From: Candidatus Kapaibacterium sp.
GTDB lineage: Bacteria > Bacteroidota > Ignavibacteria > Kapaibacteriales > WFXC01
Direction: 5' to 3'
Length of the DNA stretch: 64,000 nt
Assembly (NCBI GenBank): GCA_026996895.1
Contig: JALWJX010000082.1
Coordinates: 38,031-102,030 of the forward strand
The translations under genes were made by a program, and so were the position numbers. Below are positions 19,891 through 58,100 of the stretch, piece by piece; within the stretch, counting starts at the first letter, position 1; each line of letters opens with the position of its first letter. The notes below the pieces were generated by a model. The model searched no databases. It worked only from the letters and a program-made list of their open reading frames with translations, and was not told where the DNA came from.

Positions 19891-20037
19891 CAGCGATAAC
19901 GCAGAGGACAGCGTCCCGGCACTCTCTGCCGACTTTCTTCCGTCGCTCCAGAGAGCAGCAGATAGCGGAGTGCCGGGTACCTTAGCGCAAAAGCGTAAAT
20001 TTGCAATTCCCTAAGCATCGCAACAACTGTCTCAGTA

Positions 20038-20259
20038 ATGGATATGGACGCTCGCAACAAATTCCAGCACCTGCTCCGGGAATTGTTCCAGTTCGACACT
20101 GCCGATCTGGACTTCGGCATCTACCGTATTATGAACCGCAAGCGGGAGGTCAACGCTGTTTCAAAAGAAAAGATATCTTTGCCAATCGACGGGCTCTGTT
20201 TTGCGCCCCTCTTTTGCTGTACACGCAACCGATGGAATGTTCACCGTGCAGGTGGTTGA
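20038..20259 (+). pseudogene. 73-codon gene remnant, apparently the N-terminal fragment of a larger protein.
   Basis: The segment FQHLLRELFQFDTADLDFGIYRIMNRKRE reads like a conserved N-terminal motif but stops abruptly. It is wedged between truncated clpB and the toxin-antitoxin pair, and its identity is uncertain. Confidence 0.3.
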
Positions 20260-20277
20260 AAATCTGGAGGAGAGAAA

Positions 20278-20592
20278 ATGCCATTGAAAATCCAGTATTC
20301 CCGCAGCGCTCTTGAAAAGTTCTGCAAGCGATGGCACATTCAGGAACTTGCTCTTTTCGGCTCTTCACTGCGGGAGGACTTCCGACCTGACAGTGATGTG
20401 GATGTTCTGGTCACCTTTCAACCTGGGATCTTCTGGTCCTTTCGGGACTGGCTCCAGATGGTGCGTGAACTGGAAGCTATTTTTGGACGAACGGTAGACC
20501 TGGTGGAACGCCGGATGGTAGAGCAAAGCAAAAACTATATCCGCCGCAATCATATTCTCACTCACCTGGAGCAGGTCTATGTGGCGCGATGA
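20278..20592 (+). CDS. mntA: Nucleotidyltransferase antitoxin (MntA-like) of a HepT/MntA type VII toxin-antitoxin pair.
   Basis: It has the minimal nucleotidyltransferase motif [18 protein letters not shown] (GS-x9-DxD). Confidence 0.8.
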
Positions 20593-20920
20593 GGCATACC
20601 TTCTCGATATGCTGATTGCTGCCCGCGAAGCCAGAGATTTCAGTGAGGGACTCACCTGGAAGACATTTCAACAGAGCTCTCTCCACCAGCATGCTATTGC
20701 TAAGGCATTGGAGAATATCGGCGAGGCAGCACGAAAAGTGTCGAACGAAATGAAAGCTGCTCATCCCGAAATTCCGTGGAGAGAGATTGTCGCATTGCGC
20801 CACCGTATTGCCCACGATTATTTCCACCTCGACTTAGTGCGGATATGGCAAATTGTGCAGGAAGACGTACCCACCCTCATTCGGCTCCTTGAACCGCTAA
20901 TACCTCCAGAGGAGCATTAA
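20579..20920 (+). CDS. hepT: HEPN-domain (DUF86) toxin HepT.
   Basis: The Rx4HxY HEPN motif is present in LRHRIAHDY. The gene overlaps mntA by 14 nt, as is typical for this pair. Confidence 0.8.
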
Positions 20921-28015: not shown

Positions 28016-28038
28016 AAATTACGTAATTTTACGTATTG
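28016..28038 (+). promoter_or_regulatory. 23-nt conserved motif aaattacgtaattttacgtattg with an ACGTAA-TT-TTACGT palindrome. It lies 68 nt upstream of the 28106 operon and is identical at 52058-52080.
   Basis: It is an exact 23/23 match at two loci, both at the same distance upstream of paralogous giant-protein operons. A second palindrome, CTACATTTGTAG, lies at 28058-28069. Confidence 0.55.
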
Positions 28039-28105
28039 CAAGGGTTGCGGCTATTTGCTACATTTGTAGAGATTTTGGAACAGTAGCTCCAGACATAAAC
28101 AAAGA

Positions 28106-31100
28106 ATGCGAAGAGCGTGGATCAGTGCTATAGGAATTTTCATCAGCGTTTCGGTTATCTGGGGACAAACGCCTTCCAACGGCGCATTGCTGCTGACCAA
28201 CAATGCTGCTTTTGTTGTCCTCCCTGGCAGCGACATTACCATTGCAACCAGTGCGGGGATCAAACAGGAAAATGCCAGTGCAATCGTGCTGTACGGCGAC
28301 CTGGAAAATCACGGTAAGATCGTCCCCGGCGATGGATACCTGTTGTGTACGGGTCCTTCGACGCAGGTCCTCCGGGGTACTCGGGAAATTACTCTTAACC
28401 ACTGGTGGTTCCGGAAATCTGCTCCTTCCGACGTTGTCAAAATCGACAACGATGTGCGGGTCTATCAGCCGCTCACTGTGAATACGGTCACCTTAGAAAT
28501 CATCCACAGCAGCTCACACACGGTCACCCTGGACAGCGATCTTAAAATCAATGCTGATGGCAAGTGGATCGTTGCTTCAACGGGGACGACGGGACGCGAC
28601 CATCAAATTGTGCTCCGTGGCAATGCCCAAATCGATGGACAATGGATTCTCCGACCCATTCTGAACAACGACAACTATCGTGCCCGCCTGCGATTTCAAA
28701 CGACCGCAACGCAAACACTCACTGGCAGCGGGACGGTGCAATTCTACCAGGTCATTCTCGACAAAGGAAGCAAGGCAAACCGGGTTGAAAGCCGGATGAA
28801 CGTCGGGCTGAGCGCTCTGGGCTCAGGCTCTGCGATGGATTTCATCGCCGGTACGTGGCAGCAAACGACGGGAACGTTGACATTCGACAATGGCGTGAGC
28901 GTTTCTTACAACGAAACTATTGCCGCTAACGGATCACTCCAGATCCTGGGCGATGCTTCGATGATCATCGGGCAAAATGGCGTTGGAAGCTCTTTGATCC
29001 TCGACGGAGGCGAATTCATCGTAAACACGACTGGATTTGCCAATATCGGCAGCCAGAACGATAATTCCCTGCAATACACGGATGCTGGCGGCAGTCGATT
29101 CGAGCTCCATCAGGGAACAGTGACTGTTGCTGGACGCTTTTCACGCCAAACGGCAACGGGAACCAACACAATAGACTATCTCCAGACGGGGGGCACGCTG
29201 ATCGTCGGTGCCGTTGGTCACTCGAACGGCTCCCTCGGAACCTTTGATATCGGTGCCAGCGGCTCTTCCTTCACAATGGGCGGCGGGACTATCATTTTGC
29301 GCAATGCAAACAGCTCCGGAAGCAGCAGCCGTCCGGCAGATTTCAATGTTCAGGCAGCAACCGTTGCAGTCTCCGGCGGCACGGTTCAATTTGGCGATGC
29401 AGGGACGACAACACTGCAGCGATTCGATTATGATGTCCCCAACGGCGCATTGTGGCACGTATCGGTCAGTTCTGCGAACGCCACGGTTTACCCTTTTTCC
29501 CCAACTTCCGATCTCCGCATTCAGGGGAACTTCTACAATGCAGGCAGATGGGATGGGACACAAACGCGATCGGGCACTGCTGTCTCAACGGCTGGGATTG
29601 TCTTTGAAGGTAGTGGTGCCACGTCGCAAACGGTGCGAAGTCTGGGAACAACGACCTTTGCAACGTTGCGGATGAACCGCGGTGCCGGCAGCGGCATTGT
29701 GCAACTGCTCGATGACATTTCTGTCTCCCACCAGGTTGATCTGCGCGAAGGCAGCAATAGCCAGCCACAGATTCTGGCGCTGGGCAGTGGAGCCAATCTC
29801 TATGTGCTGAGCACCAGCACCACGGCAATTATCGACTACGCCAGTGCGCCAATCCGATACATTCGCACCAGTACCACCAGCGGCCGTGTCGTATGGAACG
29901 TTACGGCGGGAAAGACCTACTTCTTCCCCATAGGATCAGCCGAAAGTGGTGATACGTACACTCCCGCTGAAGTTGCTATCGGCAGTGGCGGCAGCGATGG
30001 CAGGATCGGCATCCGGGTCTCCCGTGGGCAACGTGCCGATGGAGCGCATCTCCAACTCCCGTCGAGTGCAACAGACTTTCTGCGACGATACTGGTCGATT
30101 TCCAACGTCACAATGACCCATCCTGCACAATGGACGTTCTACTATCAGGATGGCGCTGCATACCTTGCAGGCAGTGAAGCGAATCTGGCGCAAGCAGGGC
30201 GATGGCGACCAATCAACGAGGCGCCCGGTGGCAACTGGGTCGGCTACGCTGCAACCGTTAACCCATCACAGAATTTCTTCCAGTTGCCCACCCTTGACGC
30301 TTCACTGCTGGAAGGAGATTGGACCTTAGCCAATGAAATTTTCCGACAAATTTTCTACAGCCGCCAGAGCGGACCGTGGAGTCAGCACACTTCGTGGACA
30401 TATAGTCCTACCCACGTCGGACCCAGTGTGGCAACTGGCGTTTATCCCGCCGCCGCCACGGATTCTGCTGTTATAGGCGGCGGCAGTTATGGTGTCGGCA
30501 ACCACCATATCCAGTTGGATCTTTCCGTCACGATCGGTGGCGTTACTGTCGGCACCTCAGCTACCAACACCGGCACCTTAGAACTCCGGGATAACATCAT
30601 CAGCGGTGATTGGTTTGTCCTCCAAGATCAATCCACCCTGATGATTGGCTCGACCAGTGGCATTATGGCAGCCCCAGCGGCAGCAGGGAATGTGCAGACG
30701 ACCTATCGAGTTTTCGCCACAACCGCAACATACGTCTACAATGGCACAACGAACCAGACGATCGGTACTGCTCTTCCTTCGACCGTCGCAACATTTCGGG
30801 TCGACAACACAGGACCTGCCGGCAACAATCGCGTAACGGTAGACCGAACCATCCAGGTCACCCGGGACTTAGAAATCCTCCAGGGCGAATTAGACGTCAC
30901 AACGGTCACAATGCCCAATGTTAGCGCCAGCGGAAATTTTGTTCTGGCTACCGACGCATCTGTCCGCATAGGGGGGAGCAACAACTTCGGTGCAGCCTTC
31001 GCCGGTTACACCACTTACACCTTAGCCACCAGCAGTACGGTGGAATTCTACGGCAACAGCAAAACGGTCGATATGCCTCCAAACGGCGGACTCGGCTATG

Positions 31101-31291
31101 GCTATCTGGTCATCTCTGATGCACCAACGAAGTACATCAATGCACCGTTGCGGGTCCGTCGGGACGTGACGATCAATCCCGGTGCTTTCCTCTGGAACAA
31201 CGTCAGCGGTAATCAATTCCAGGTACTCGGCAATATTGTCAATCACGGGCAGCTATGCAACGACGGTATTATCGAAATTGGAATACCATAG
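28106..31291 (+). CDS. Large secreted Ser/Thr/Gly-rich protein of unknown function (1061 aa), encoded upstream of giant fiber-like protein 1.
   Basis: It has a signal peptide (MRRAWISAIGIFISVSVIWGQ) and low-complexity beta-rich composition. It appears co-operonic with 31416-39587, with a 124-nt gap and no intervening motif. Confidence 0.6.
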   Translation: MRRAWISAIGIFISVSVIWGQTPSNGALLLTNNAAFVVLPGSDITIATSAGIKQENASAIVLYGDLENHGKIVPGDGYLLCTGPSTQVLRGTREITLNHWWFRKSAPSDVVKIDNDVRVYQPLTVNTVTLEIIHSSSHTVTLDSDLKINADGKWIVASTGTTGRDHQIVLRGNAQIDGQWILRPILNNDNYRARLRFQTTATQTLTGSGTVQFYQVILDKGSKANRVESRMNVGLSALGSGSAMDFIAGTWQQTTGTLTFDNGVSVSYNETIAANGSLQILGDASMIIGQNGVGSSLILDGGEFIVNTTGFANIGSQNDNSLQYTDAGGSRFELHQGTVTVAGRFSRQTATGTNTIDYLQTGGTLIVGAVGHSNGSLGTFDIGASGSSFTMGGGTIILRNANSSGSSSRPADFNVQAATVAVSGGTVQFGDAGTTTLQRFDYDVPNGALWHVSVSSANATVYPFSPTSDLRIQGNFYNAGRWDGTQTRSGTAVSTAGIVFEGSGATSQTVRSLGTTTFATLRMNRGAGSGIVQLLDDISVSHQVDLREGSNSQPQILALGSGANLYVLSTSTTAIIDYASAPIRYIRTSTTSGRVVWNVTAGKTYFFPIGSAESGDTYTPAEVAIGSGGSDGRIGIRVSRGQRADGAHLQLPSSATDFLRRYWSISNVTMTHPAQWTFYYQDGAAYLAGSEANLAQAGRWRPINEAPGGNWVGYAATVNPSQNFFQLPTLDASLLEGDWTLANEIFRQIFYSRQSGPWSQHTSWTYSPTHVGPSVATGVYPAAATDSAVIGGGSYGVGNHHIQLDLSVTIGGVTVGTSATNTGTLELRDNIISGDWFVLQDQSTLMIGSTSGIMAAPAAAGNVQTTYRVFATTATYVYNGTTNQTIGTALPSTVATFRVDNTGPAGNNRVTVDRTIQVTRDLEILQGELDVTTVTMPNVSASGNFVLATDASVRIGGSNNFGAAFAGYTTYTLATSSTVEFYGNSKTVDMPPNGGLGYGYLVISDAPTKYINAPLRVRRDVTINPGAFLWNNVSGNQFQVLGNIVNHGQLCNDGIIEIGIP

Positions 31292-31415
31292 CTCCGGTGT
31301 ATCATAGCGGTGTTACGGGGGCTGTCAAACGCTATCTGGCACTTTGTGCGCAACCTACGCACACTGCACTGAAAATGGCAAAATATTTTGGGTAATAAAT
31401 CAAGGAAGTCTGGTG

Positions 31416-34400
31416 ATGAAACACAGAGTCCAATTGATACTTCTGATCTGGTTGATTTTTTCACCCTTACTCTGGTCTCAGGGCAATCCCAGCGTTGGAA
31501 TCGGCACTTTTACCCCTGATCCTTCTGCAATCTTAGAGCTTCGCTCCACATCGAAGGGGTTCTTGGTGCCACGAATGACAACGGCACAACGGAATGCGAT
31601 CAGCTCTCCTGCTCTCTGGCTGCTGATCTTCAACACTGATACCCAGCAGTTTGAATACTGGAACGGCACGGTATGGATCCCGCTGATTTCTATACAAAAC
31701 GTCAGCAACAGTGCCTGGTCTCTCAGTGGCAACACGCTCACCGGGAGCGAGTTTCTTGGATCTGTGAATCTCCAGCCGGTAGTGTTCAAGACCAATGGTG
31801 CGGAGCGAATGCGGATTTCCACGACCGGCAATGTTGGTATCGGCATCATTACGCCGACCAATACCCTGCACGTTAAAGCAACCAGCAATCCCCTGCGACT
31901 GGAAGGCTTGCAGTCTCTGAGCAACGCTTCTACAATCTTAGCGGTCGATGCCAACGGCGTTGTCTACACCACCAGTGCCAGTTCCTTTACGGCATCGAAC
32001 GCCTGGTCGCTGACAGGAAATGCCGGCACTGATCCAAACACCGACTTTCTGGGTACGACGGACAATCAACCGCTGGTGATTCGGACGAACAACACCGAGC
32101 GGATGCGGATTCTGGCATCCGGTTTGGTCGGGATCGGAACCAATACCCCAACGAACACGTTGCACGTCAAAGCAACGAGCAACCCACTGCGGTTGGAAGG
32201 CGTGCAAACTACTGCCAGCGCTTCGACCCTGTTAGCCATCGACGCCAATGGGGTCGTGGTCTCGACCAGTGCCTCGACTTTTGTTGCCAACAACGCTTGG
32301 GCACTCAGCGGCAACACGCTCACTGGCAGTGAGTTCCTCGGATCAGTCAATGCCCAGCCGGTAGTGATCCGAACGAACAACACCGAGGCGATGCGGATCG
32401 ATGCCAATCAACGGGTGGGAATTGGAACGAACGCACCGAGCCACACCCTGCACGTTGCTGCGCCCAGCAATCCGTTGCGACTGGAAGGGTTGCAGTCATT
32501 GAGCAATGCGGGAACGATCTTAGCCGTGGATGCCAACGGTGTTGTCTACACCACCAGTGCCAGTGCCTTTGCTGCTGCTAACGCCTGGTCGCTGACAGGA
32601 AATGCCGGCACTGATCCGACAACGAATTTCCTGGGCACTACTGACAATCAACCGTTGGTGATCAGAGTCAATAATCTGCAAGCTGTGCGAATTGAACCAA
32701 CGAACCAAACGATCAATATCATCGTGGGAACTTCCAACATCGTCACTGCGGGCGTCTATGGAGCTGTTATTAGCGGTGGTGGATATGGAAACAATGAAAA
32801 TAAAGTCACAGACAACTTCAGTACAGTAAGCGGAGGAGTTTCAAATCAAGCTGGGAACAATAACGCTGATGTAACCGATGCACAGTACGCCACGGTCGGA
32901 GGAGGCTACGGAAATACTGCCAGCGGTTTAGGCAGCACTATTAGCGGTGGATGGAACAACACTGCCAGTGCTGCCCGGAGTACGATTGGTGGAGGATATA
33001 ACAACAATGCCATCGGATGGGGAACCACTATTGGGGGAGGTGCTGATAATATTGCCAGCAGCGAGTATAGCACAGTCAGTGGTGGGAAAAACAACAATGC
33101 CAACGTTGCTTATAGTACCATTGGAGGAGGTCTGCAAAATACTGCCAGTGGTCAATATAGTACCATTGGAGGAGGTCTGCAAAATACTGCCAGTGGTCAA
33201 TATAGTACCATTGGAGGAGGTCTGCAAAATACTGCCAGTGGTCAATATAGTACCATTGGAGGAGGCAGTGCTAATATAACAGGTGGCGATTGGAGCACTG
33301 TGAGCGGAGGATGGACAAACATTGCCAGCGGAGGTGGCAGCGTTGTTGGTGGTGGACGGGGCAATACAGCAGGTGGAGCCTATAGTACCATACCTGGAGG
33401 TCTCAACAACTCTGCCCTGGGTGATTATACCTATGCAGGAGGAAGAGCGATGTATTTGAGTACCTCGGCCAACCATACCTTTGTCTGGGGCTATGCAACG
33501 GCAACTTCTGCTATCACCGCCTCCGACGCCTTCCTCATCGGTCCCTACGGGAACAACTACCGCGTTGGGATCAATGTCGTTAATCCTACTGCTGCTCTGC
33601 ATGTCACCGCTGGAACGTGGACGTATCCATTGCGACTGGAAGGATTGCAGCCACTGAGCAACGCCGGAACGATCTTAGCGGTCGATGCCAACGGCGTTGT
33701 CTACACCACCAGTGCCAGTGCTTTTGCTGCTGCCAATGCCTGGACGCTGACAGGGAATGCCGGGACTGATCCAGCAATTAACTTCTTGGGTACAACGGAC
33801 AATCAACCACTGGTGATTCGCACCAACAACCTTGAACGGATGCGGATCTCCACGACCGGCAATGTCGGCATTGGCATCAGCACGCCGACCAACACGTTGC
33901 ACGTCAAAGCAACGAGCAACCCACTGCGGTTGGAAGGCGTGCAAACTACTGCCAGTGCTTCGACCCTGTTAGCCATCGACGCCAATGGGGTCGTGGTCTC
34001 GACCAGTGCCTCGACTTTTGTTGCCAACAACGCCTGGGCACTCAGCGGCAACACGCTCACTGGCAGTGAGTTCCTCGGATCAGTCAATGCCCAGCCGGTG
34101 GTGTTCAAGACCAGTGGAATTGAAGCGATGCGGATCGACGTTGATCAGCAGGTTGGGATCGGCACCAGCACACCAACGAACACCTTGCACGTTAAAGCGA
34201 CCATCGATCCGTTACGACTGGAAGGGTTGCAAACCACCAGTGCTACTGCGACGGTCCTGGTTTCGGACGCTGCGGGGATCGTGTACACCACCAGCGCTAG
34301 CGCTCTTGCTGCTGCCAATGCCTGGTCGCTCACTGGCAACGCTGGAACCAACCCAGCGAGCAACTTCTTAGGCACCACGGACAATCAGCCACTGATTATC

Positions 34401-37400
34401 AAAGTTAATAACGCACAGGCATTGCGCATAGAGCCAACTGTCGGATCCCCAAATATTCTGGGCGGCTACGGATTGAACAGTATCTCCAGTGGCGTAGTTG
34501 GAGCTGTTATCAGCGGTGGGGGTAGCACTGGATTATCGAACAAAGTCACCGACAATTATGGTGTTATCGGAGGCGGCGTGGGAAATCAAGTGGGAAACAA
34601 TAGCGGAGGAGCTATCGATGCTCAGTATGCAACCGTAGGTGGCGGCTATGGAAACACTGCCAGCAGTACCTCGAGCACCGTGGGTGGCGGTGAACTTAAC
34701 ATTGCCAGTGGACTCCGGAGCACTGTTGGCGGCGGTTATAGCAACACTGCCAGTGGCGATAGGGGTACTGTGGGAGGAGGTTACGGGAATACCGCCAGCG
34801 GCCCGGGCAGCACCGTTGCTGGTGGCGAGAATAATACTGCCAGTGGTGGCGTGAGTGCTGTGGGTGGCGGTGACAACAATATTGCCAGTGGTGATGTGAG
34901 CACTGTGGGTGGCGGTTATAGCAACATTGCCAGCGGTGCAGGAAGTACTGTGGGCGGCGGTACAAACAACACTGCTAGTGGCAATACCAGTACCGTATCA
35001 GGTGGAGCTTTCAATACTGCAGCAGGTGACGTTTCCTGGGCTGGAGGAGCATACATGTATCTGTCGCCCACCGCCGATCACACCTTTGTCTGGGGCTATG
35101 CAACGGCAACTTCTGCTATCACCGCCTCCGACGCCTTCCTCATCGGTCCCTACGGGAACAACTACCGCGTTGGGATCAATGTCGTTAATCCTACTGCTGC
35201 TCTGCATGTCACCGCTGGAACGTGGACATATCCATTGCGATTAGAAGGCTTGCAACCACTGAGCAATGCGGGGACAATCTTAGCGGTTGATGCCAACGGT
35301 GTTGTGTACACCACCAGTGCCAGTGCGTTTGCTGCTGCTAACGCCTGGGCACTGACAGGGAATGCCGGAACCGATCCAGCAATCAACTTCTTGGGTACTA
35401 CGGATAATCAACCGTTGGTGATTCGCATTAACAACCTTGAGCGGATGCGGATTTCCACCATCGGCAACGTCGGCATTGGCATCAGCACGCCGACCAACAC
35501 CTTGCACGTCAAAGCGACCAGTGATCCGTTGCGGTTAGAGGGCGTGCAGAGCAGTGCTAATGCGACGACCCTGTTAGCCATCGACGCCAGTGGAGTGGTA
35601 GTATCGACCAGCGCCTCGACCTTTGTTGCCAACAACGCTTGGGCACTCAGCGGCAACACCCTCACTGGCAGTGAGTTCCTCGGATCGGTCAATGCGCAGC
35701 CGGTGGTGATCCGGACCAACAACACCGAGGCGATGCGGATCGATGCCAACCAACGGGTGGGGATTGGAACCAATGCACCGAGCCACACCTTACACGTTGC
35801 TGCGCCCAGCAACCCGCTGCGGTTGGAAGGCTTGCAACCTCTGAGCAATGCGGGGACAATCTTAGCCATTGATGCCAATGGCGTGGTGTACACGACCAGT
35901 GCAACATCCTTCACCGCTGCCAATGCCTGGTCGCTCACAGGAAACGCCGGGACTGATCCAAACACCGACTTTCTGGGCACGACGGACAACCAACCGCTGG
36001 TGATTCGGACGAACAACACCGAACGGATGCGGATTCTGGCATCCGGACTGGTCGGCATCGGAACCAGCACACCGAGTCATACGTTGCACGTCAAAGCAAC
36101 GAGTGACCCGTTGCGGTTAGAGGGCGTGCAGAGCAGTGCTAATGCGACGACGCTGTTAGCCATCGATGTCAATGGGGTCGTGGTCTCGACCAGTGCCTCG
36201 ACTTTTGTTGCCAACAACGCTTGGGCACTCAGCGGCAACACGCTCACTGGCAGTGAGTTCCTCGGATCAGTCAATGCCCAGCCGGTAGTGATCCGGACGA
36301 ACAACACTGAGGCGATGCGGATCGATGCCAGTCAACGGGTGGGGATTGGAACGAACGCACCGAGCCACACCCTGCACGTTGCTGCGCCCAGCAATCCATT
36401 GCGTCTGGAAGGCTTGCAGTCATTGAGCAATGCCGGAACCATCTTAGCGGTCGATGCCAACGGCGTTGTCTACACCACCAGTGCAACATCCTTCACCGCT
36501 GCGAATGCCTGGGCACTCAGCGGCAACACCCTTACTGGCAGTGAGTTCCTCGGATCGCTCAATGCCCAGCCCGTGGTGTTCAAGACTAATGGCGTAGAAC
36601 GAATGCGAATTACTGCTGCTGGTGACATTGGCATTGGAACCACAACTCCAGGTGCCAAAGTTGACATCCGGGCGAATAGTGCCAGCGATCTGCTGGTTCG
36701 CATCTGGAACGCTGGTGGCAATGCAAAATTCCGCATCGTTGGTCAGGGTGGCAGTGCACAACCACGGTTTCAGTATACGGTCAACGCTGAATGGCTCTCC
36801 GAGATTGCCGGCAACACCAGTACAGGTTTGGAATTCCGAGTTCGTGCTCCGTCGGATCCAAATGACGAAGCAACTCTGGCAACCCGAACCCGGATGGTGG
36901 TTGGGAGGACGGGCAATGTCGGCATTGGAACGCTATCGCCAACGAATCGACTCCACGTCGTTGCTCCCAGCAACCCACTGCGACTGGAAGGGTTGCAGTC
37001 ATTGAGCAATGCGGGAACGATCTTAGCGGTCGATGCCAACGGCGTTGTCTACACCACCAGTGCAACATCCTTCACCGCTGCGAATGCCTGGGCACTGAGT
37101 GGGAATGCGGGAACCGATCCAAACACCGACTTTCTGGGTACGACGGATAATCAACCGCTGGTGATTCGGACGAACAACACCGAACGGATGCGGATTCTGG
37201 CATCCGGACTGGTCGGGATTGGAACCAATACCCCAACGAACACGTTGCACGTCAAAGCAACGAGCAACCCACTGCGGTTGGAAGGCGTGCAGACTACTGC
37301 CAGCGCTTCGACCCTGTTAGCCATCGATGTCAATGGGGTCGTGGTCTCGACCAGTGCCTCGACTTTTGTTGCCAACAACGCTTGGGCACTCAGCGGCAAC

Positions 37401-39587
37401 ACGCTCACTGGCAGTGAGTTCCTCGGATCAGTCAATGCCCAGCCGGTAGTGATCCGGACGAACAACACTGAGGCGATGCGGATCGATGCCAATCAACGGG
37501 TGGGGATTGGAACGAACGCACCGAGCCACACCCTGCACGTTGCTGCGCCCAGCAATCCGTTGCGTCTGGAAGGGTTGCAGTCATTGAGCAATGCCGGAAC
37601 GATCTTGGCGGTTGATGCTAACGGTGTGGTCTACACCACCAGCGCCAGTTCCTTTACAGCATCGAACGCCTGGTCGCTGACAGGAAACGCCGGGACTGAT
37701 CCGACAACGAATTTCCTGGGAACTACCGACAATCAACCACTGGTGATTCGCACCAACAACCTTGAACGGATGCGGATCTCCACGACCGGCAATGTCGGCA
37801 TTGGCATCAGCACGCCGACCAACACGTTGCACGTCAAAGCAACGAGCAACCCACTGCGGTTGGAAGGCGTGCAAACTACTGCCAGTGCTTCGACCCTGTT
37901 AGCCATCGACGCCAATGGGGTCGTGGTCTCGACCAGTGCCTCGACTTTTGTTGCCAACAACGCTTGGGCACTCAGCGGCAACACGCTCACTGGAAGTGAA
38001 TTTCTCGGATCGGTCAATGCGCAGCCGGTAGTGATCCGAACGAACAACACTGAGGCGATGCGGATCGATGCCAACCAACGGGTGGGGATTGGAACCAATG
38101 CACCGAGCCACACCTTACACGTTGCTGCGCCCAGCAACCCGCTGCGGTTGGAAGGTTTACAACCACTGAGCAACGCCGGAACGATCTTGGCGGTTGATGC
38201 TAACGGTGTGGTCTACACCACCAGCGCCAGTTCCTTTACAGCATCGAACGCCTGGTCGCTGACAGGAAACGCCGGGACTGATCCGACAACGAATTTCCTG
38301 GGAACTACTGACAATCAACCGCTGGTGATTCGGACCAACAATGCGGAACGGATGCGAGTGTTAGCCTCTGGCTACGTTGGTGTTGGGACGACCTCTCCAA
38401 CTGCCCGGTTAATGGCAGTCGAAGATGCACCCGGACAGGCAGTGATGCGAATCCAGAATCTGGATGCCGCTGGTCTTTCCGGTATTGAATTTCTGACCCA
38501 CACCTCTGCTGTAATGGGGTACGTTGGGCTGGAACCTGGCGGCGGTGCTCTGCGCATCTGGAGTCAGTCAAATATGATCCGGTTCTATACCAACGGCGTA
38601 GAACGGGTGCGAATCACGACCACCGGAAACGTTGGAATCGGATCCTTAGATCCGCAATATCGGCTGCACATTGAAGGCGATGGAATGATGTACGCCTCTG
38701 GAGAATTCGGCAAGGGCGCAACGATGCCAGAAGGAGCAAAGACGGCGTTCATCTGGAATCCGCGCAAAGCGGCATTGCGAGCAGGATCGGTGACAGCAGA
38801 TCAGTGGAACGATGCTCAGGTCGGCGCTTACACCGTCGCTTTTGGTAAAAACACGATTGCCAGTGGCGCATTTTCCGTTGCGGTTGGAGAAAACACGGTT
38901 GCTGAAGGAGCGGCTGCGTGGGTCGGCGGTCGGAATTTGCATCTGCTCCCGGATGCAACGGGTACGTTTGCCTGGGGCAATACCGAACACTCCACATCGA
39001 TCGAAACCAGTTATGCGTTCCTGATTGGTCCTGGAGATACGCCCTACCGTGTCGGGATCAACACGGCAACACCGACGTACGCACTGGAGTTGCCCAATGA
39101 CTCGCGAGCGAACGTGGGACAGGCACGAGCAAACGCGTGGCTGACATACGCAGATCCACGGATGTGGAGTGCAACTGAACCCATTGGCGCAACCAGTGAG
39201 CTGTTGTCACAACTCCAACCGCTTCGATACCGCGATGTTGCAGGCAAGAGCGGCTTCAGCTTTGATCCCCAGCAACTGGCAGCGGTTCTCCCGGAAGCGG
39301 TGGGGGTTCCAGCAGACAGCTCGCAGCAGTGGAGTATTAACTATGCAGCGCTCATTCCTGTGCTGGTCGCAATGCTCCAGGAACAGCAGCAGCAAATCCA
39401 GCAATTGCGGCAACAGAATCTGGCATTGCAACAGCAAGTTGCCGAAACACAGCAACTCCGGAAGCGACTGGCAAAAATGGAGCAGCAACTGTCAACGCTG
39501 GAACAGTTACAGCAGCAGGTTCGGTACCTGATCCAGCTCCAGCGTGAAGCACGCCCCGTTCCAACAGCAAGCAACGGCGGAAAATAA
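31416..39587 (+). CDS. Giant secreted repeat protein (about 2,720 aa). It has a signal peptide, about twenty ~95-aa modules, two YadA-head-like Gly-rich 14-mer blocks, a C-terminal tail-fiber intramolecular-chaperone (peptidase S74)-like domain and a Gln-rich coiled coil.
   Basis: It has a signal peptide (MKHRVQLILLIWLIFSPLLWSQ) after an aggaag ribosome-binding site. The module consensus is NAWSLTGNAGTDP..FLGTTDNQPLVIRTNN.ERMRI...VGIGT.TPT.TLHVKATSNPLRLEGLQ....LAVDANGVVYTTSAS. The STIGGGLQNTASGQYSTIGGG repeats resemble the YadA head. The C-terminus (LQPLRYRDVAGKSGFSFDPQQLAAVLPEAVGV....QWSINYAALIPVLVAMLQEQQQQIQQL) resembles the S74 chaperone domain. Confidence 0.8.
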   Translation: MKHRVQLILLIWLIFSPLLWSQGNPSVGIGTFTPDPSAILELRSTSKGFLVPRMTTAQRNAISSPALWLLIFNTDTQQFEYWNGTVWIPLISIQNVSNSAWSLSGNTLTGSEFLGSVNLQPVVFKTNGAERMRISTTGNVGIGIITPTNTLHVKATSNPLRLEGLQSLSNASTILAVDANGVVYTTSASSFTASNAWSLTGNAGTDPNTDFLGTTDNQPLVIRTNNTERMRILASGLVGIGTNTPTNTLHVKATSNPLRLEGVQTTASASTLLAIDANGVVVSTSASTFVANNAWALSGNTLTGSEFLGSVNAQPVVIRTNNTEAMRIDANQRVGIGTNAPSHTLHVAAPSNPLRLEGLQSLSNAGTILAVDANGVVYTTSASAFAAANAWSLTGNAGTDPTTNFLGTTDNQPLVIRVNNLQAVRIEPTNQTINIIVGTSNIVTAGVYGAVISGGGYGNNENKVTDNFSTVSGGVSNQAGNNNADVTDAQYATVGGGYGNTASGLGSTISGGWNNTASAARSTIGGGYNNNAIGWGTTIGGGADNIASSEYSTVSGGKNNNANVAYSTIGGGLQNTASGQYSTIGGGLQNTASGQYSTIGGGLQNTASGQYSTIGGGSANITGGDWSTVSGGWTNIASGGGSVVGGGRGNTAGGAYSTIPGGLNNSALGDYTYAGGRAMYLSTSANHTFVWGYATATSAITASDAFLIGPYGNNYRVGINVVNPTAALHVTAGTWTYPLRLEGLQPLSNAGTILAVDANGVVYTTSASAFAAANAWTLTGNAGTDPAINFLGTTDNQPLVIRTNNLERMRISTTGNVGIGISTPTNTLHVKATSNPLRLEGVQTTASASTLLAIDANGVVVSTSASTFVANNAWALSGNTLTGSEFLGSVNAQPVVFKTSGIEAMRIDVDQQVGIGTSTPTNTLHVKATIDPLRLEGLQTTSATATVLVSDAAGIVYTTSASALAAANAWSLTGNAGTNPASNFLGTTDNQPLIIKVNNAQALRIEPTVGSPNILGGYGLNSISSGVVGAVISGGGSTGLSNKVTDNYGVIGGGVGNQVGNNSGGAIDAQYATVGGGYGNTASSTSSTVGGGELNIASGLRSTVGGGYSNTASGDRGTVGGGYGNTASGPGSTVAGGENNTASGGVSAVGGGDNNIASGDVSTVGGGYSNIASGAGSTVGGGTNNTASGNTSTVSGGAFNTAAGDVSWAGGAYMYLSPTADHTFVWGYATATSAITASDAFLIGPYGNNYRVGINVVNPTAALHVTAGTWTYPLRLEGLQPLSNAGTILAVDANGVVYTTSASAFAAANAWALTGNAGTDPAINFLGTTDNQPLVIRINNLERMRISTIGNVGIGISTPTNTLHVKATSDPLRLEGVQSSANATTLLAIDASGVVVSTSASTFVANNAWALSGNTLTGSEFLGSVNAQPVVIRTNNTEAMRIDANQRVGIGTNAPSHTLHVAAPSNPLRLEGLQPLSNAGTILAIDANGVVYTTSATSFTAANAWSLTGNAGTDPNTDFLGTTDNQPLVIRTNNTERMRILASGLVGIGTSTPSHTLHVKATSDPLRLEGVQSSANATTLLAIDVNGVVVSTSASTFVANNAWALSGNTLTGSEFLGSVNAQPVVIRTNNTEAMRIDASQRVGIGTNAPSHTLHVAAPSNPLRLEGLQSLSNAGTILAVDANGVVYTTSATSFTAANAWALSGNTLTGSEFLGSLNAQPVVFKTNGVERMRITAAGDIGIGTTTPGAKVDIRANSASDLLVRIWNAGGNAKFRIVGQGGSAQPRFQYTVNAEWLSEIAGNTSTGLEFRVRAPSDPNDEATLATRTRMVVGRTGNVGIGTLSPTNRLHVVAPSNPLRLEGLQSLSNAGTILAVDANGVVYTTSATSFTAANAWALSGNAGTDPNTDFLGTTDNQPLVIRTNNTERMRILASGLVGIGTNTPTNTLHVKATSNPLRLEGVQTTASASTLLAIDVNGVVVSTSASTFVANNAWALSGNTLTGSEFLGSVNAQPVVIRTNNTEAMRIDANQRVGIGTNAPSHTLHVAAPSNPLRLEGLQSLSNAGTILAVDANGVVYTTSASSFTASNAWSLTGNAGTDPTTNFLGTTDNQPLVIRTNNLERMRISTTGNVGIGISTPTNTLHVKATSNPLRLEGVQTTASASTLLAIDANGVVVSTSASTFVANNAWALSGNTLTGSEFLGSVNAQPVVIRTNNTEAMRIDANQRVGIGTNAPSHTLHVAAPSNPLRLEGLQPLSNAGTILAVDANGVVYTTSASSFTASNAWSLTGNAGTDPTTNFLGTTDNQPLVIRTNNAERMRVLASGYVGVGTTSPTARLMAVEDAPGQAVMRIQNLDAAGLSGIEFLTHTSAVMGYVGLEPGGGALRIWSQSNMIRFYTNGVERVRITTTGNVGIGSLDPQYRLHIEGDGMMYASGEFGKGATMPEGAKTAFIWNPRKAALRAGSVTADQWNDAQVGAYTVAFGKNTIASGAFSVAVGENTVAEGAAAWVGGRNLHLLPDATGTFAWGNTEHSTSIETSYAFLIGPGDTPYRVGINTATPTYALELPNDSRANVGQARANAWLTYADPRMWSATEPIGATSELLSQLQPLRYRDVAGKSGFSFDPQQLAAVLPEAVGVPADSSQQWSINYAALIPVLVAMLQEQQQQIQQLRQQNLALQQQVAETQQLRKRLAKMEQQLSTLEQLQQQVRYLIQLQREARPVPTASNGGK
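31700..38350 (+). repeat. Intragenic tandem and interspersed DNA repeats (285-bp modules, many more than 90% identical over more than 300 bp) inside the giant gene.
   Basis: Near-identical stretches occur at about 32170-32480, 37260-37570 and 37850-38150, and at about 31830-32000, 33820-33990 and 37780-37950. The same spurious antisense ORFs (MHAFQPQWVARCFDVQRV...) appear three times. Confidence 0.8.
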
Positions 39588-52057: not shown

Positions 52058-52080
52058 AAATTACGTAATTTTACGTATTG
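52058..52080 (+). promoter_or_regulatory. Second copy of the 23-nt palindromic motif aaattacgtaattttacgtattg, 62 nt upstream of giant fiber-like gene 2.
   Basis: It is identical to 28016-28038. Confidence 0.55.
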
Positions 52081-52141
52081 ATTTTTCAGCTGCCAACGTG
52101 TATTTTTGCCGTGATATACGCAAAATACAGGAGAAAACACG

Positions 52142-55100
52142 ATGATGGCACAATTGTGGAAACCGCGCCTAAATACAGTATTATTGACGATCGCTCTCTG
52201 GACTGTCTGTATCATTGCTGGCTGGTCTCAGACAGTTTTCCGCGAAGGAGGCATCCCCCGGATGGTCATTGCAACTACCGGCAATGTAGGGATTGGTACA
52301 ACCACTCCTTCTATCACTGCATTGCTGGAACTCAGCTCAACCTCCGCGGGGATCCTCATTCCCCGACTCACTCAGGCAGAGCGAGATGCAATCAACTCCC
52401 CTGCGTTGTGGTTATTGATCTTCAACACCACCGCCCAGCAGTTTGAATACTGGAACGGTTCGCAGTGGATTCCTTTAATTTCTGCTACTTCTCTCACTTC
52501 CAGCAGTTGGTCACTGACGGGGAACGCTGGAACCGACCCAGCGACCAATTTTCTGGGTACCACGGATAACCAGCCGTTGGTGATTCGGACGAACAACACC
52601 GAAGTAATGCGGGTTACCACTACTGGCAACGTTGGGATTGGCACCAGTGCTCCCGGCTATCGCCTTCACCTTGCTGCTGATGGGATGATCTATGCGGAAG
52701 GAACTTTTGGTGCGGGAGCAACCGTTCCGCCGGGAGCGAAGACAGCGTTTATCTGGAACCCGCGCAAAGCGGCGATTCGAGCTGGACAGGTAACGGGCAA
52801 TCAGTGGGATGATGCGAATGTTGGCAACTACTCGGTTGCTTTTGGGTACGCTAACACTGCCAGTGGTGCTGGGAGCACCGTTGGTGGTGGGCAGGGCAAC
52901 GTTGCCAGCGGTCAGAATAGCACCCTCGGTGGTGGCTACCTGAACACCGCCAGCGGCAACTGGAGCACTGTCGGCGGCGGCTATCAGAACACCGCCAGTG
53001 GCGTTACCAGTACCATCGGTGGTGGTCTTTCCAACACTGCCAGCGATTATTATAGCACCGTCGGCGGCGGTCAACAAAACATCGCCAGCGGCACTGGCAG
53101 CACCGTCAGCGGCGGCGTCCAGAACACTGCCAGCGGGCACTATAGCACTGTTAGCGGTGGCTTTTACAACACCGCCAGCGGTTACTCCAGTATTGTCAGC
53201 GGGGGTCGGAACAATACTGCTGGCGGTGATTACTCCTGGGCAGGTGGCGGCTATATGTACCTCAGCGCTGCTGCCGATCGCACCTTCGTCTGGGGGTATG
53301 CCACGGTGACAACGGCGATTACTGCTTCGGATGCCTTTCTGATTGGTCCGTATGGCAACAGTTACCGTGTTGGGATCAACGTATTGAACCCTGCCGCGGC
53401 ACTGCATGTCAACGTTGGAAGCTGGTCGTACCCGCTACGGGTGGAAGGATTACCGACAACGAGCGCCAGCAGTACGGTGCTGGTCTCAGATGCCGCAGGG
53501 ATCGTGTACACCACCAGTGCCAGTGCACTGGCGGCATCCAATGCCTGGTCGCTGACAGGAAATGCCGGGACCGATCCAACAACGAATTTCCTGGGAACCA
53601 TTGACAACCGACCCCTGGTGATTCGCACGAACAACACCGAAGTAATGCGGGTTACCACTACTGGCAACGTTGGCGTTGGGACAGTGACACCAACAGTGAA
53701 GTTACACGTCAAGGCTGTCAGCAATCCGCTACGGCTGGAAGGGTTGCAGCCTTTGAGCAACGCCAGCACGATTTTAGCCGTCGATGGTAGCGGCGTGGTC
53801 TACACCACCAGTGCCAGTAGCCTGGCATCTGCCAGCGCGTGGAACATTACGGGGAACAGTGGTACAGATCCAGCAACGAACTTCTTAGGAACGACCGATA
53901 ATCAGCCGCTGGTGATTCGGACCAACAATGTAGAGCGGATGCGGATCACTGTTAACGGCTATGTTGGCATTGGAACAGATACTCCTGGGGAAATGCTGGA
54001 TATTGTCGGCAACTCCGATGCTGATCTGAATCTCACTTCCTTTGGTTCTTCCATTAGCACTATTCATATGCGTCGAGCCTTAGGAAGCAAATCTTCTCCA
54101 GCACCGGTAACCAACAATAACAACTTAGGTGGTGTCGAAGGCTTAGGGTACGACGGAACACAATACGTCCGGGCTGCGGGTATTGATTTTCAGGTTGATG
54201 GACCGGTCACCGCCAATGTAGTACCAGGACGGATTGTATTTCGAGTCCGACGACAAGGAAGTACCAGCTGGGGCGGAGAGGAGCAGGTGTTTATCAAAAA
54301 TGATGGAAAGGTAGGAATTCGGGTTGCCCATCCAACACATCGGCTGCACGTTGTAGCAGAAACTGGGGAAGATCCGCTCCGCCTGGAGGGTCTGCGAACG
54401 ACAACAGCGACGGTGGATTTGCTGGTTGCCACAGCCAGCGGCAGTGTGCATACCAGCAACGTACAGAGTTTAGTGGGCACTGTCGCCTGGTTGCTCACTG
54501 GAAATGCGGGGACAGATCCGGCGACGAATTTCTTAGGAACGACCGATAATCAGCCGTTGATCATCAAAGTAAACAACACGCAGGCATTGCGCATTGATCC
54601 CAACAGTGTATCGCCCAACATTATAGGCGGGTACAGCGGCAATAGCATTGCCAGCAGCGTTGTTGGGGCAATCATTAGCGGTGGTGGGAAGACAGCGGGA
54701 ACCAATCAGGTCACTGATAATTATGGCGTAGTCGGCGGCGGCGCTGGCAATCGAGCTGGCAATAATAGCGGGACAACCACTGATGCAGCGTATGCAACTG
54801 TGGGGGGAGGCTACGTTAATATAGCCAGTGGACAATACAGTATGGTTGGAGGGGGACAGAGCAACGTTGCCAGCGGGAACCATACTGTAGTTGCAGGGGG
54901 ATATAACAATCATGCCATTGGCAGTTACACTGCCGTTGGAGGGGGCATTAATAACAGTGCAAATGGCAATTATGGAATTGTCAGTGGAGGGGAACTCAAC
55001 AATGCCAGTGGTAGTTATAGCACCATTAGTGGGGGAAAGAGCAACATCGCCAGTGGTCAATACAGTGTTATAGGAGGCGGAATAAATAATGTTGCCAGCA

Positions 55101-58100
55101 ATACTTACAGTACCGTAGGAGGTGGATCTGGAAATCAAGCCAGCAGTTGGGCCAGCACAGTGGGAGGAGGACAGGGAAACACGGCAGGAGGAAATGGTGG
55201 AACGATCAGCGGCGGAGAAAACAACACTATCAATGCAGTTCTGGGTACAATCGGAGGAGGACAGGGAAACACGGTCAGTGGAGATAGAGGGACAATTGCA
55301 GGGGGACAGAATAACGCTGTTAATGGTATTGCAGGCACAATCGGAGGAGGACAGGGAAACACGGCAGGAGGAAATGGAAGTACAATCGCTGGAGGACAAA
55401 GTAATACTGCCAGCAGTAGTTATAGCAGCATTGGTGGAGGTATAAACAACAGTGCCAATGGCAACAATAGCACCGTTGGCGGTGGGGAACTCAACAGTGC
55501 CAGCGGCAGTCATAGTACTGTTGGAGGTGGCAAGAGCAACGCTGCTGGAGGTAGTTATAGCACAATCGGGGGAGGCATTAATAACGCTGCTGAAAACAAC
55601 TATAGTGCAGTCGTTGGCGGTCAAAATAACAAAGCCAGAGGATGGTACAGCACGATTGGAGGTGGAGGTGATAATAGCGTGAGCGGGAGATATAGTACGA
55701 TCAGCGGAGGAAGGGGCAATACCGTAGCAGGCGATTATGGATGGGCTGGGGGACGGGGAATGTACGCCGTGAGTTCTGCTGATCGGACCTTTGTCTGGGG
55801 CTATGCAACAGCGACGACGGCAATTACGGTATCAGATGCGTTTTTGATCGGTCCGTACGGGAACAGCTATCGAGTCGGGATCAACATACTGAATCCAACC
55901 GCGGCATTGCACGTCAATGCTGGGACGTGGAGCTACCCATTGCGGGTAGAGGGATTACCCTCAACCAGTGCCAGTAGCACAGTGCTGGTATCGGATGCCA
56001 GTGGGATTATTTACACCACCAGCGCCAGCAGTCTGGTCGGAAGTAATGTATGGTTGTTAACCGGCAATGCGGGCACGAATCCGGCAAGCAATTTCCTGGG
56101 TACCACCGATAATCAACCACTATCGATCCGCAGCAACAATCAGGAGGTTGTGCGAATTTCAACCTCGGGTGTGCAAATGCTACATCATAATACCACCTCT
56201 GTCCTCAGCATAGGTCCCAATCAACGAGTGAAAATTCAGGAATACCAACCGCACAGTGGAACTGATATTGGTGCCCCGGTGTGGGGGCGAGGCAGGATCA
56301 GTGTTGGAGGGACTGTCATCACAGGCTTTTGGCCCGCCGTGAAGTTTAACACGTACTGGAATCCTGCCGTAAGTCAGAACGTCCACATCACAACAGGGTC
56401 AGCATTCGTGATCAACCACGAACAGGACCCCGCTGCAAACAATCTGGTCATTTACTACTCCCCGTACCGATCAGCAGGTCAACAGTTTCAATACAATATA
56501 GGGCTTGCACTGACAACTTCCGGCAATGTTGGCGTTGGAACTGATACCCCAACAGCGAAGCTCCATATCAGCGCAACCAGTGCACCTTTGCGGCTGGAAG
56601 GATTGCAGGCAACCAGTGCAACGACAACCTTGTTGGCAGCAGATGGGCAGGGGGTGGTATATGCAACCAATGCCAGCAGTTTGATCAACAATCAGGCGTG
56701 GTCATTATTTGGCAACAGCGGGACGGACCCAGCAGTGAACTTCGTAGGAACTATCGACGCCCAACCGCTGGTGTTCCGGACGGGCAACGTTGAACGGGCG
56801 CGGATTACAACAGCAGGGCATCTGGGGATTGGAACCTCAAATCCCGGGTGGCTTCTGGATGTTGCTGGAACTGTCCACTTCGGAACCAGCGGAAACTTTG
56901 GAACCATCATTGCTGATATGCAGGCAGCCAACTTGTATGCTGGGGGATTGCAGGTGCGTAAGCGTGGAGCCACTGGAGATGCAAATGCGGCCGTCGTGGA
57001 TGGTTCAGAAATTGGTTATCACGATTTCTGGGGCTGGGATGGGAACAATTACAAGCGGTTAGCATACGTATTGGTAACCGCTCACGGAAATATTACCCCA
57101 GGCAGCGGTGGGGGCGATTATGCGATCGTAACTCGGGATCCAACGACCAATACTGAAGAGACTCGACTTTTCATCGATGCTCGAGGATATGTTGGGATCG
57201 GAACGACAACGCCGCTGCGACGCCTGGTGGTTGGCAATGACGATATTAACGGCATCAGTCTGGAAGAAGGCACCAGTCCGAATGCGGGATATTTGCGTTT
57301 TGGCGATAATACGGGATGGAAGTTTCACATTGGTCGCTCTCGGGAAAGCACATCAGGACCGTTGAATATAAGCACAACCGGGGTATTGGTAACAATTCAG
57401 GATGACGGCAACGTAGGAATTGGCAACACAGCACCACCAGCAACGTTGACAATCACAAATGCTATAGAGCTGCGCGGCAGTGGGAATGTATCATCGGTAG
57501 AAAGTGATATTCTCTTCACCTACAGCGGCGGTATTGCGGCGCAGAATAGTTTATACTTCTTCATTGATGCTGACAACAATGATGATGATACTCGAGCTTT
57601 CCGATTTCGCCGCAATGGGGAGACCATTAGTTCAACCAACACTGAAGATTTAATGGTCATTCGGGAAAGTGGAAAGGTTGGCATTGGGGTCGGTAATCCG
57701 AGCAATATTCTCACCATCGTACAAAACTCTTCCACAGATCCTATTGCCGATGCGTGGACAACGTATTCCACGCCGGAGACGAAAATCGTGTTAGGAACAC
57801 TGGATGCTGAAGCGCTGGAAGAATACCTCCGCCAGTTCAAGCAGTTGCCCATATATAAATGGCAGCGGACGGAAAGCGAACCGATCCGGGTCAGTGCAAT
57901 GGCAGAACCGGGCACACCGTCAGAAATTATGGCGTACGATGAAAAAGGAGAAATCCAGGGAATCGACCTGCAGGGATACATCGGGTTCTTACACACAGTG
58001 GTCAAAGCCCAACAGCAAATCTTAGAGCAGCAGCAGGCAGCGATCCAGCAACTCCAGACATCGACGCAACGCCAGCAGACAGAGATCCAGCAGCTTCGGC

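Follow-up and report, generated by a model that had tools for sequence, protein, structure and literature searches.

Organization of the locus

The subject of this analysis is a gene at positions 28106 to 31291 of a 64,000-nucleotide (nt) stretch of DNA, referred to below as the window, from Candidatus Kapaibacterium, a genus that NCBI places in the Bacteroidota. The gene encodes an exported protein of 1061 amino acids (aa), for which a beta-helical fold is predicted, and is followed on the same strand by the gene for a phage tail fiber-like protein (fiber 1). A paralogous fiber gene (fiber 2) lies further downstream. As judged from its gene neighborhood, the beta-helix protein is probably the working partner of these fibers, because its pairing with fiber-like genes recurs in nine loci, eight of which lie outside the species. 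The locus comprises the following features.

28016-28038 (+): 23-nt element AAATTACGTAATTTTACGTATTG, with a second copy at 52058-52080 before fiber 2
28036..28066 (+): putative Bacteroidota-type promoter (TTG, 20 nt, TACATTTG; -33/-7), 40 nt before the ATG of the gene under study
28106..31291 (+): gene under study, 1061-aa exported protein with a predicted beta-helix, as judged from its reading frame, composition, structural model, fold matches, and codon differences
31292..31415 (+): intergenic gap of 124 nt between the gene under study and fiber 1, whose ATG is at 31416
31416..39587 (+): fiber 1, 2723 aa, with a signal peptide, adjoining the gene under study
31479..31691 (+): constant N-terminal domain (N-domain) of fiber 1, aa 22-92 (QGNPSVGIGT...PRMTTAQRNAI...WIPLIS)
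52058..52108 (+): second element and putative promoter (TTG, 20 nt, TATTTTTG), 34 nt upstream of fiber 2
52142..58246 (+): fiber 2, 2034 aa, paralog of fiber 1 (44-47% identity), with its N-domain at aa 45-114 (52274-52483)

The open reading frame (ORF) of the gene under study runs from an ATG start to a stop codon at 31289-31291. Its product is rich in Gly (11.8%), Thr (10.9%), Ser (9.3%), Asn (6.2%), and Gln (4.7%) and contains 1.0% Lys. The N terminus, MRRAWISAIGIFISVSVIWG followed by QTP, combines a basic n-region with a 16-residue hydrophobic core. These properties agree with the initial annotation of this DNA, made from the letters alone, which had described a signal-peptide protein of 1061 aa rich in Ser, Thr, Gly, Asn, and Gln and without a motif that could be placed. 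Scans of the protein against Pfam, NCBIfam, and PHROG returned no match at an E value of ≤0.1 or 0.01, and a PDB sequence profile search gave no match. Internal repeats were not found at the BLAST level. The gene is real and under strong purifying selection: compared to its copy in strain L011 (91.7% nucleotide identity), it shows 212 synonymous and 33 nonsynonymous codon differences, and third codon positions hold 223 of the 265 differences.

Signal peptides were called by reading the sequence, not by a predictor. The protein contains two Cys residues (81 and 1051), both far from the N terminus, and is therefore not a lipoprotein. The predicted cut sites expose Gln at position +1 in the protein under study (28163-28168), in fiber 1 (31476-31481), and in fiber 2 (52226-52231), and Gln also occupies this position in a TonB receptor of the window and in almost all relatives of the protein (P0059-P0103). 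This pattern fits the Q-rule for signal-peptide cleavage described in Bacteroidetes (PMC5837995), extended informally here to the Kapabacteria.

Fiber 1 is composed of the constant N-domain, long internal repeats, YadA-head-like GGxxNxA rolls, and a tail fiber-like C-terminal region with a coiled coil. Both fibers match phage tail fiber PHROGs. The fiber 1 repeats are approximately 190 aa long and up to 83% identical between copies; related contigs from metagenome-assembled genomes (MAGs) all break within the fiber 1 gene, maybe because of these repeats. As the initial annotation had stated, the second fiber locus has no equivalent of the gene under study, since a six-frame profile search of the window for its relatives recovered that gene alone and none at the fiber 2 locus (52142-58246).

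Predicted fold and domain layout

The structure of the 1061-aa protein was modeled with AlphaFold2 from an alignment of 26 sequences. The model is all-beta, with a mean predicted local distance difference test score (pLDDT) of 76 and a predicted template modeling score of 0.64, and aa 110-560 score between 80 and 97. The protein is thereby predicted to be an elongated right-handed parallel beta-helix of approximately 1000 residues, interrupted by one beta-sandwich domain, with the following layout.

28106..28165 (+): signal peptide, aa 1-20, with a signal peptidase I cut after G20 and Gln at +1, as read from the sequence
28166..28420 (+): N-terminal cap, aa 21-105, common to the N termini of giant family members
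28421..29785 (+): predicted beta-helix 1, aa 106-560
29786..30340 (+): predicted inserted beta-sandwich domain, aa 561-745, with motifs FPIG...Y.P and RYW
30341..30505 (+): linker, aa 746-800, with motif FYSRQSGPWSQHTSW, delimited by alignments with relatives
30506..31288 (+): C-terminal family module, aa 801-1061, predicted beta-helix ending in ...NDGIIEIGIP

The beta-helix rungs reach the last residue of the model, where there is no Ig-like sandwich. The beta-sandwich sits between two helix segments and, when modeled alone, gives low confidence and weak matches only. The pLDDT of the cap is low because the relatives that match it had to be left out of the alignment used for modeling. The linker motif FYSRQSGPW...W (aa 750-765) resembles a G8 domain by eye only; the Pfam G8 model (PF10162) does not match the protein at an E value of ≤0.1, while 9 of the 26 relatives do match it.

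When the full model was queried against the PDB with Foldseek, nothing was found at an E value of <1e-3, and only generic beta-helices were returned. The best fold matches are the adhesin passengers Vag8, UpaB, Ag43, and TibA, together with SRRP, and tailspikes are also among the matches. The protein shares the right-handed parallel beta-helix that characterizes pectate-lyase-fold enzymes and phage tailspike depolymerases. Model and fold matches together replace the "unknown fold" of the initial annotation by a predicted right-handed, soluble beta-helix. Its further suggestion of an usher or baseplate-like protein finds no support, as no sequence or fold similarity to either was detected; an anchor, which it also proposed, is a possible role.

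An unnamed family of beta-helix proteins

An exhaustive profile search with the protein matched 2021 representative clusters. The gene was previously considered a possible locus-specific accessory; it belongs instead to a widespread family. The top matches are proteins of 3500-5350 aa, aligned through to their C-terminal end, and proteins of 1000-1090 aa. A word-indexed search retrieved a relative at 98%, two at 37%, and distant surface proteins with a type IX secretion system (T9SS) tail; a word-indexed search with the C-terminal profile found fragments only. The metagenome scan was run with a four-sequence C-terminal alignment. So far, the family has been found in Kapaibacterium/Kapabacteriales, in Ignavibacteria-labeled MAGs, and in unassigned metagenome contigs, with P0059 (4825 aa), P0062 (5352 aa), and P0067 (4224 aa, from a record named Kapabacteriale_UBA2268) as examples. 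Neither Pfam nor NCBIfam holds a model for this family, and a studied member could not be found.

Over the last 1050 aa of P0059, the protein shows 41% identity, and no protein of about 1000 aa is closer. Its C-terminal module shares 35-46% identity with the last ~270 aa of 11 members, which range from 1000 to 5350 aa. The family ends at its very C terminus in the motif ...N-x-G-[VI]-[IL]-[ED]-I-G, seen as NDGIIEIGIP in this protein. Among the 147 best representatives, 61 carry an N-x-G-x-[IVL]-x-[IVL]-G terminus, typically NNGVIEIGQ. The last ~130 aa find their counterpart solely at the extreme C terminus of members, and a profile of aa 930-1057 matches only the terminal unit of the giants.

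The giants are built of 6 to 10 repeats of a beta-sandwich plus a beta-helix segment, of which the protein under study has one. Its aa 21-135 align with the N termini of 10 members (P0059, P0064, P0065, P0067, P0068, P0070, P0094, P0103, P0077, and P0099), relative to which its cap carries a 6-residue deletion. Judged by these alignments, the protein is the minimal-length form of the family, consisting of the N-cap, a helix, one unit, and the C-terminal module. The Kapaibacterium and Ignavibacteria homologs of about 1000 aa (35-40% identity) lack the cap; they start with TTFYSRQTGAW, the motif that the protein under study carries at aa 750.

Pairing with fiber-like genes across loci

The flanks of cap-bearing relatives were read in comparison loci picked from the best matches on long contigs. 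In all eight in which the upstream side was readable, the adjacent co-directional gene is fiber-like, at a distance of 3-89 nt. The gene orders are as follows.

L034: 464-aa fiber-like gene, then P0059
L035: 479-aa fiber-like gene, then P0064 (weaker link)
L036: 834-aa and 333-aa fiber-like genes, then P0077 (1067 aa, nearest in size to the protein under study)
L037: 182-aa fiber-like gene, then P0065
L038/L039: 777-aa fiber-like gene, then P0067 (record named Kapabacteriale_UBA2268)
L040: 585-aa fiber-like gene, then P0094
L041: 1408-aa fiber-like gene, then P0103
L042: 443-aa fiber-like gene, then P0070

The upstream neighbor carries the fiber N-domain in seven of the eight loci, and these neighbors bear a precomputed PF26696 (PTL_trimer) assignment. 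The N-domain consensus reads xNVGIGTxxPxxSALLxL.STxxGxLxPRMTxAxRxxIxxPAxGL...FxYYxGxxW, and the neighbors share 47-69% identity with the fibers of the window (BLAST and alignment). Similarity extends further in some cases: the 464-aa protein of L034 matches fiber 1 (33% over 351 aa, E 2e-36), and the 834-aa protein of L036 matches fiber 2 (36% over 378 aa, E 6e-45) and repeats the fiber architecture, with a GTDP repeat, GGxxNxA rolls, and a tail fiber-like C terminus with a coiled coil. In the eighth locus, L035, the 479-aa protein has a C-terminal domain in common with the 443-aa protein of L042, and its ORF as called lacks the N-domain, which makes it weaker evidence.

The same adjacency is present in the window, where fiber 1, with its PF26696-type N-domain, adjoins the gene under study 124 nt downstream, and in the three 97-98% identical strains the fiber likewise follows the gene. 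The proposal of the initial annotation that the protein is a partner of the fiber is thus backed by neighborhood in all eight other loci, fully in the seven with an N-domain and at L035 through the C-terminal domain only.

No fiber gene was found in the flanks of the cap-less homologs of about 1000 aa (≤10 kb on each side, some shortened by contig ends). Their recurrent neighbors are a Reg_prop/Y_Y_Y histidine kinase, small outer-membrane barrels, and OmpA-family proteins. An earlier view that the fiber link is species specific, based on the first 12 genome loci, was dropped after the cap-bearing loci had been read; the 35-40% homologs proved to be a cap-less subclass. The divergent TonB-receptor operon was likewise rejected as a conserved partner, as only a weak match (26%) to its N-terminal domain was seen, in one locus, and conservation does not extend to the other three genes.

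The loci of the giants (L022-L032, L034, L035, and L038-L042) have a NAD synthase, a GerE response regulator, and the fiber-N-domain protein on the upstream side. Downstream lie three proteins without a Pfam match (~750-865, ~690, and ~430 aa), then a WD40 protein with a T9SS tail, and the operon ends with an OmpA-family protein, a response regulator, and a CHASE/PAS kinase. Of the three Pfam-less proteins, the one that comes first ends in ...NNEGIIEINQ, an echo of the C-terminal motif of the family.

Distribution of the fiber N-domain in phages

The fiber N-domain occurs in at least 172 confirmed IMG/VR phage stretches at 43-64% identity, where it is part of large structural or tailspike-like proteins of true virion modules. 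In three of the four phage loci that were mapped to ORFs (650-1500 aa), it lies away from the N terminus. One such phage ORF matches tail-spike PHROGs, and its neighboring genes encode virion structural proteins. When the family of the beta-helix protein was sought in 80 phage loci with the fiber domain (L043-L122), no member was found. For this reason, the pairing of fiber and beta-helix protein is a cellular arrangement and not a prophage remnant.

Transcription signals

The 23-nt element AAATTACGTAATTTTACGTATTG occurs exactly twice in the window, with 0 copies expected by chance. It consists of two TTACGTA units 10 nt apart (one helical turn), and its last three bases are the TTG of the -33 box. 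Because the element ends in the -33 box rather than covering the -7 box, its position suggests an activator site or a UP-type element, not a repressor operator. By-eye comparison of the element with extracytoplasmic function (ECF) sigma promoters, LytTR sites, and NarL heptamers gave no fit. In strain L011, the upstream DNA is unrelated up to the first base of the element and then almost identical down to the ATG. The element precedes the gene in L008-L011 only and is absent before the 35-40% homologs. The Bacteroidota promoter consensus was taken from the literature (PMC6847099, PMC7366714). TTG-N17-23-TAnnTTTG has six matches on both strands of the 64 kb, including 28036-28066 and 52078-52108, both with a 20-nt spacer.

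The initial annotation had placed the gene in one operon with fiber 1, separated by a 124-nt gap without a copy of the element, and the coordinates and the 23-mer search agree with this. Independent promoter and terminator signals, which would separate the two co-directional genes, were looked for in the gap (31292..31415): there is no terminator-like site and no TTG-N-TAnnTTTG promoter, and the folding z-score is -0.08. A weak sigma-70-like match (9/12) lies at 31278-31305. The corresponding gap of L011 has no scan-detectable terminator. Co-transcription of the gene under study and fiber 1 is plausible from these signals.

Secretion class and comparison with known systems

The protein was compared to the known classes of secreted surface proteins. 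No T9SS sorting domain was found (PF18962/TIGR04183 for type A, TIGR04131 for type B; 0 Pfam and 0 NCBIfam matches at an E value of ≤0.1). Pfam likewise gave no match to the 12-stranded translocator barrel of type Va autotransporters (PF03797) or to the two-partner secretion (TPS) domain (PF05860), and no POTRA/ShlB-type gene was seen among the annotated neighbors. The likeness of the predicted fold to EtpA, HMW1, and HxuA is a general beta-helix similarity. The usher barrel (PF00577) and the PHROG baseplate families have no match in the protein. The protein is read as Sec-exported; its passage beyond the inner membrane is assumed, as is surface exposure.

The closest counterparts are the giant Kapabacteriales members of the family, which share whole-length homology, the N-cap, the C-terminal module, and a fiber-like neighbor with the protein under study. 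In contrast, the latter is 4 to 5 times shorter, has one repeat unit instead of 6-10, and shows the reversed gene order, and the downstream genes of the giants are not in the window. The T9SS-dependent beta-helix/G8 surface proteins of Bacteroidia and Ignavibacteriales (P0004, P0005, and P0013) are true homologs in their beta-helix and beta-sandwich modules (profile E values down to 1e-62), but they end in PF18962 (11 of the 26 aligned relatives), whereas the IEIG module forms the C terminus of the protein and of its closest relatives. The passengers of type Va autotransporters (Vag8, UpaB, pertactin, Ag43, TibA, Hap, and Pet) share 7-14% identity with the protein, which lacks their translocator barrel; the lineages differ, and the likeness is one of fold, with common origin not demonstrated.

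For the fibers, the nearest analogy is offered by the mosaic adhesive trimer (MAT) fibers of Bdellovibrio, whose invariant N-terminal domain is presumed to attach to a surface element yet to be identified (Caulton et al. 2024, PMC10769870). Like the fibers of the window, MAT fibers are cellular, carry a signal peptide, resemble phage tail fibers, and combine a constant N-terminal domain with variable distal parts. Part of fiber 1 matches Bd2133 (PDB 8ond, E 2.6e-8) and Bd3182 (8ojn). Phylum and lifestyle differ, and a beta-helix partner has not been described for MAT fibers. By analogy, a beta-helix partner of the Kapaibacterium fibers could fill the role of the surface element to which MAT fibers attach.

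Phage tailspike and tail fiber assemblies also have a beta-helix protein encoded beside a trimeric fiber, and the fiber N-domain is common in phage structural proteins. They differ in that the protein under study has no PHROG match, its family is not in the 80 phage loci with the fiber domain, and the window is without phage genes.

A putative cell-surface appendage

Taken together, these data favor a reading, with a probability of roughly 0.55, in which the beta-helix protein and the fibers are produced jointly and function within a single appendage on the cell surface. The promoter at 28036-28066 would drive the beta-helix gene and fiber 1, and the second copy of the same promoter, with its upstream element, would drive fiber 2. 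Both protein families have constant ends and a variable remainder: the fibers keep the N-domain of approximately 70 residues, and the beta-helix proteins vary from about 1000 to more than 5000 residues. The constant ends of the beta-helix protein would probably be its contact surfaces, one with the cell envelope and the other with the constant N-domain of the fiber. The beta-helix protein would then serve as a stalk or docking element, and the variable fiber ends would do the binding. Physical contact, and which of the two proteins would anchor the other, are inferred.

Several points weigh against this reading. Conservation of neighborhood would indicate functional coupling rather than contact, and the eight comparison loci are not an exhaustive census. 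The order in the window, beta-helix gene before fiber gene, is the reverse of that in the other eight loci. About ten cap-less homologs have no fiber, and fiber 2 has no adjacent partner. A separate promoter for fiber 1 is possible, given a weak -7-like sequence, TATTTTGG, with one mismatch 25 nt before its ATG, and the gap sequence is replaced in L011 (a 97%-identical strain) while it is kept in two strains. The conserved downstream genes of the giants and their GerE regulator were not found in the window by profile and tblastn searches; these genes may lie elsewhere in the genome or serve the giant members alone. Finally, no known outer-membrane route was detected in the protein, as T9SS domain, autotransporter barrel, and TPS domain are all without a match.

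There is also a bolder version of the appendage reading. Here, the cap-bearing family would be the docking element for the fiber N-domain, and the IEIG-COOH module would be a new signal for envelope anchoring or export without T9SS or type V secretion, possibly acting through the downstream proteins of the giants. We regard this as speculative and rather unlikely.

Four other explanations were considered, all of which we rank below the appendage-partner reading. The protein could be a stand-alone beta-helix adhesin, clustered and co-regulated with the fibers in one adhesion regulon and never in contact with them. Its best fold matches, Vag8, UpaB, Ag43, TibA, and SRRP, are self-sufficient adhesin passengers, cap-less homologs occur without fibers, fiber 2 stands alone, and the shared promoter element by itself accounts for co-expression. 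However, adjacency within 3-89 nt in eight of eight loci, despite divergence to 33-41% identity, exceeds what a shared regulon needs, and the combination, in both families, of constant ends and a variable middle suggests that contacts are conserved. We therefore consider an independent adhesin unlikely, though it survives better than the remaining explanations.

Less probable again is that the beta-helix degrades glycans, as a depolymerase, lyase, or hydrolase that works beside the fibers in the way that tailspikes work beside phage tail fibers. The fold would suit such a function, but no Pfam beta-helix, pectate-lyase, or glycoside-hydrolase model matches the protein even at an E value of 0.1. 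Across the 26 relatives, glycines alone are invariant, and no conserved acidic cluster was seen. Moreover, the top fold matches are non-enzymatic adhesins, and the 80 phage loci that carry the fiber domain lack the family.

We find it improbable that the protein helps to export or assemble the fiber, as an usher-, chaperone-, or secretion channel-like protein would. The conserved gene neighborhood and the fact that neither protein has a recognized outer-membrane sorting domain speak for such a role; the prediction of a soluble, elongated beta-helix, without a membrane beta-barrel or any likeness to ushers or chaperones, speaks against it, and members of up to 5352 aa are ill suited to be a chaperone or channel. 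Highly improbable is a beta-helix protein of the periplasm (NosD- or AlgG-like) whose function has nothing to do with the fibers and whose adjacency to them is meaningless, because the pairing with fiber genes is kept in distant loci, relatives of 4000-5000 aa are implausible in the periplasm, and distant relatives carry T9SS sorting domains and are hence secreted.

Phage tail fiber-like adhesins are displayed on the cell surface by bacteria other than the classic model species. The protein is a concrete candidate partner for mounting such fibers on cells, and its 1061-aa form is small enough to express. In any case, the analysis brings to light a large family with members of up to 5352 residues, without a Pfam or NCBIfam model and without a recognizable outer-membrane sorting signal, and the conserved operon of uncharacterized genes around its giants sits in an almost uncultured class of Bacteroidota. 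Should the pairing be merely regulatory, the finding would shrink to one more hypothetical beta-helix adhesin.

Other features of the window

The window is ordinary chromosome, in which no phage genes were seen; its genes include phosphofructokinases, a pyruvate kinase, a NAD kinase, glycosyltransferases, M14 peptidases, a methyl-accepting chemotaxis protein, and an MscS channel. Divergently oriented upstream of the gene under study are genes for a 543-aa protein, a CarboxypepD_reg-TonB receptor, a 335-aa protein, and an NHL-repeat protein. On the minus strand (45790-50799), divergent to a unit of EamA and fiber 2, lies a gene for a 1669-aa protein unrelated to the beta-helix protein, with choice-of-anchor D and Ig domains and a weak match to a T9SS sorting domain.

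At 18565-20920, a ClpB-like ORF stops after 441 aa and retains the Clp_N, first AAA, and lid domains only. Next come two small ORFs that overlap each other (20278-20592 and 20579-20920) and have, by eye, the look of a nucleotidyltransferase/HEPN toxin-antitoxin pair (RHRIAHDY), and clpB may have been truncated by the insertion of this pair (20278-20920). In the 98% identical strain L008 (1-13689), the MscS gene and a gene for a 379-aa protein adjoin the NHL-repeat gene; in the window (21326-42077), they lie beyond fiber 1 on the opposite strand. Either a block of approximately 18 kb from the NHL gene to fiber 1 is inverted or relocated between the strains, or one of the assemblies is wrong.

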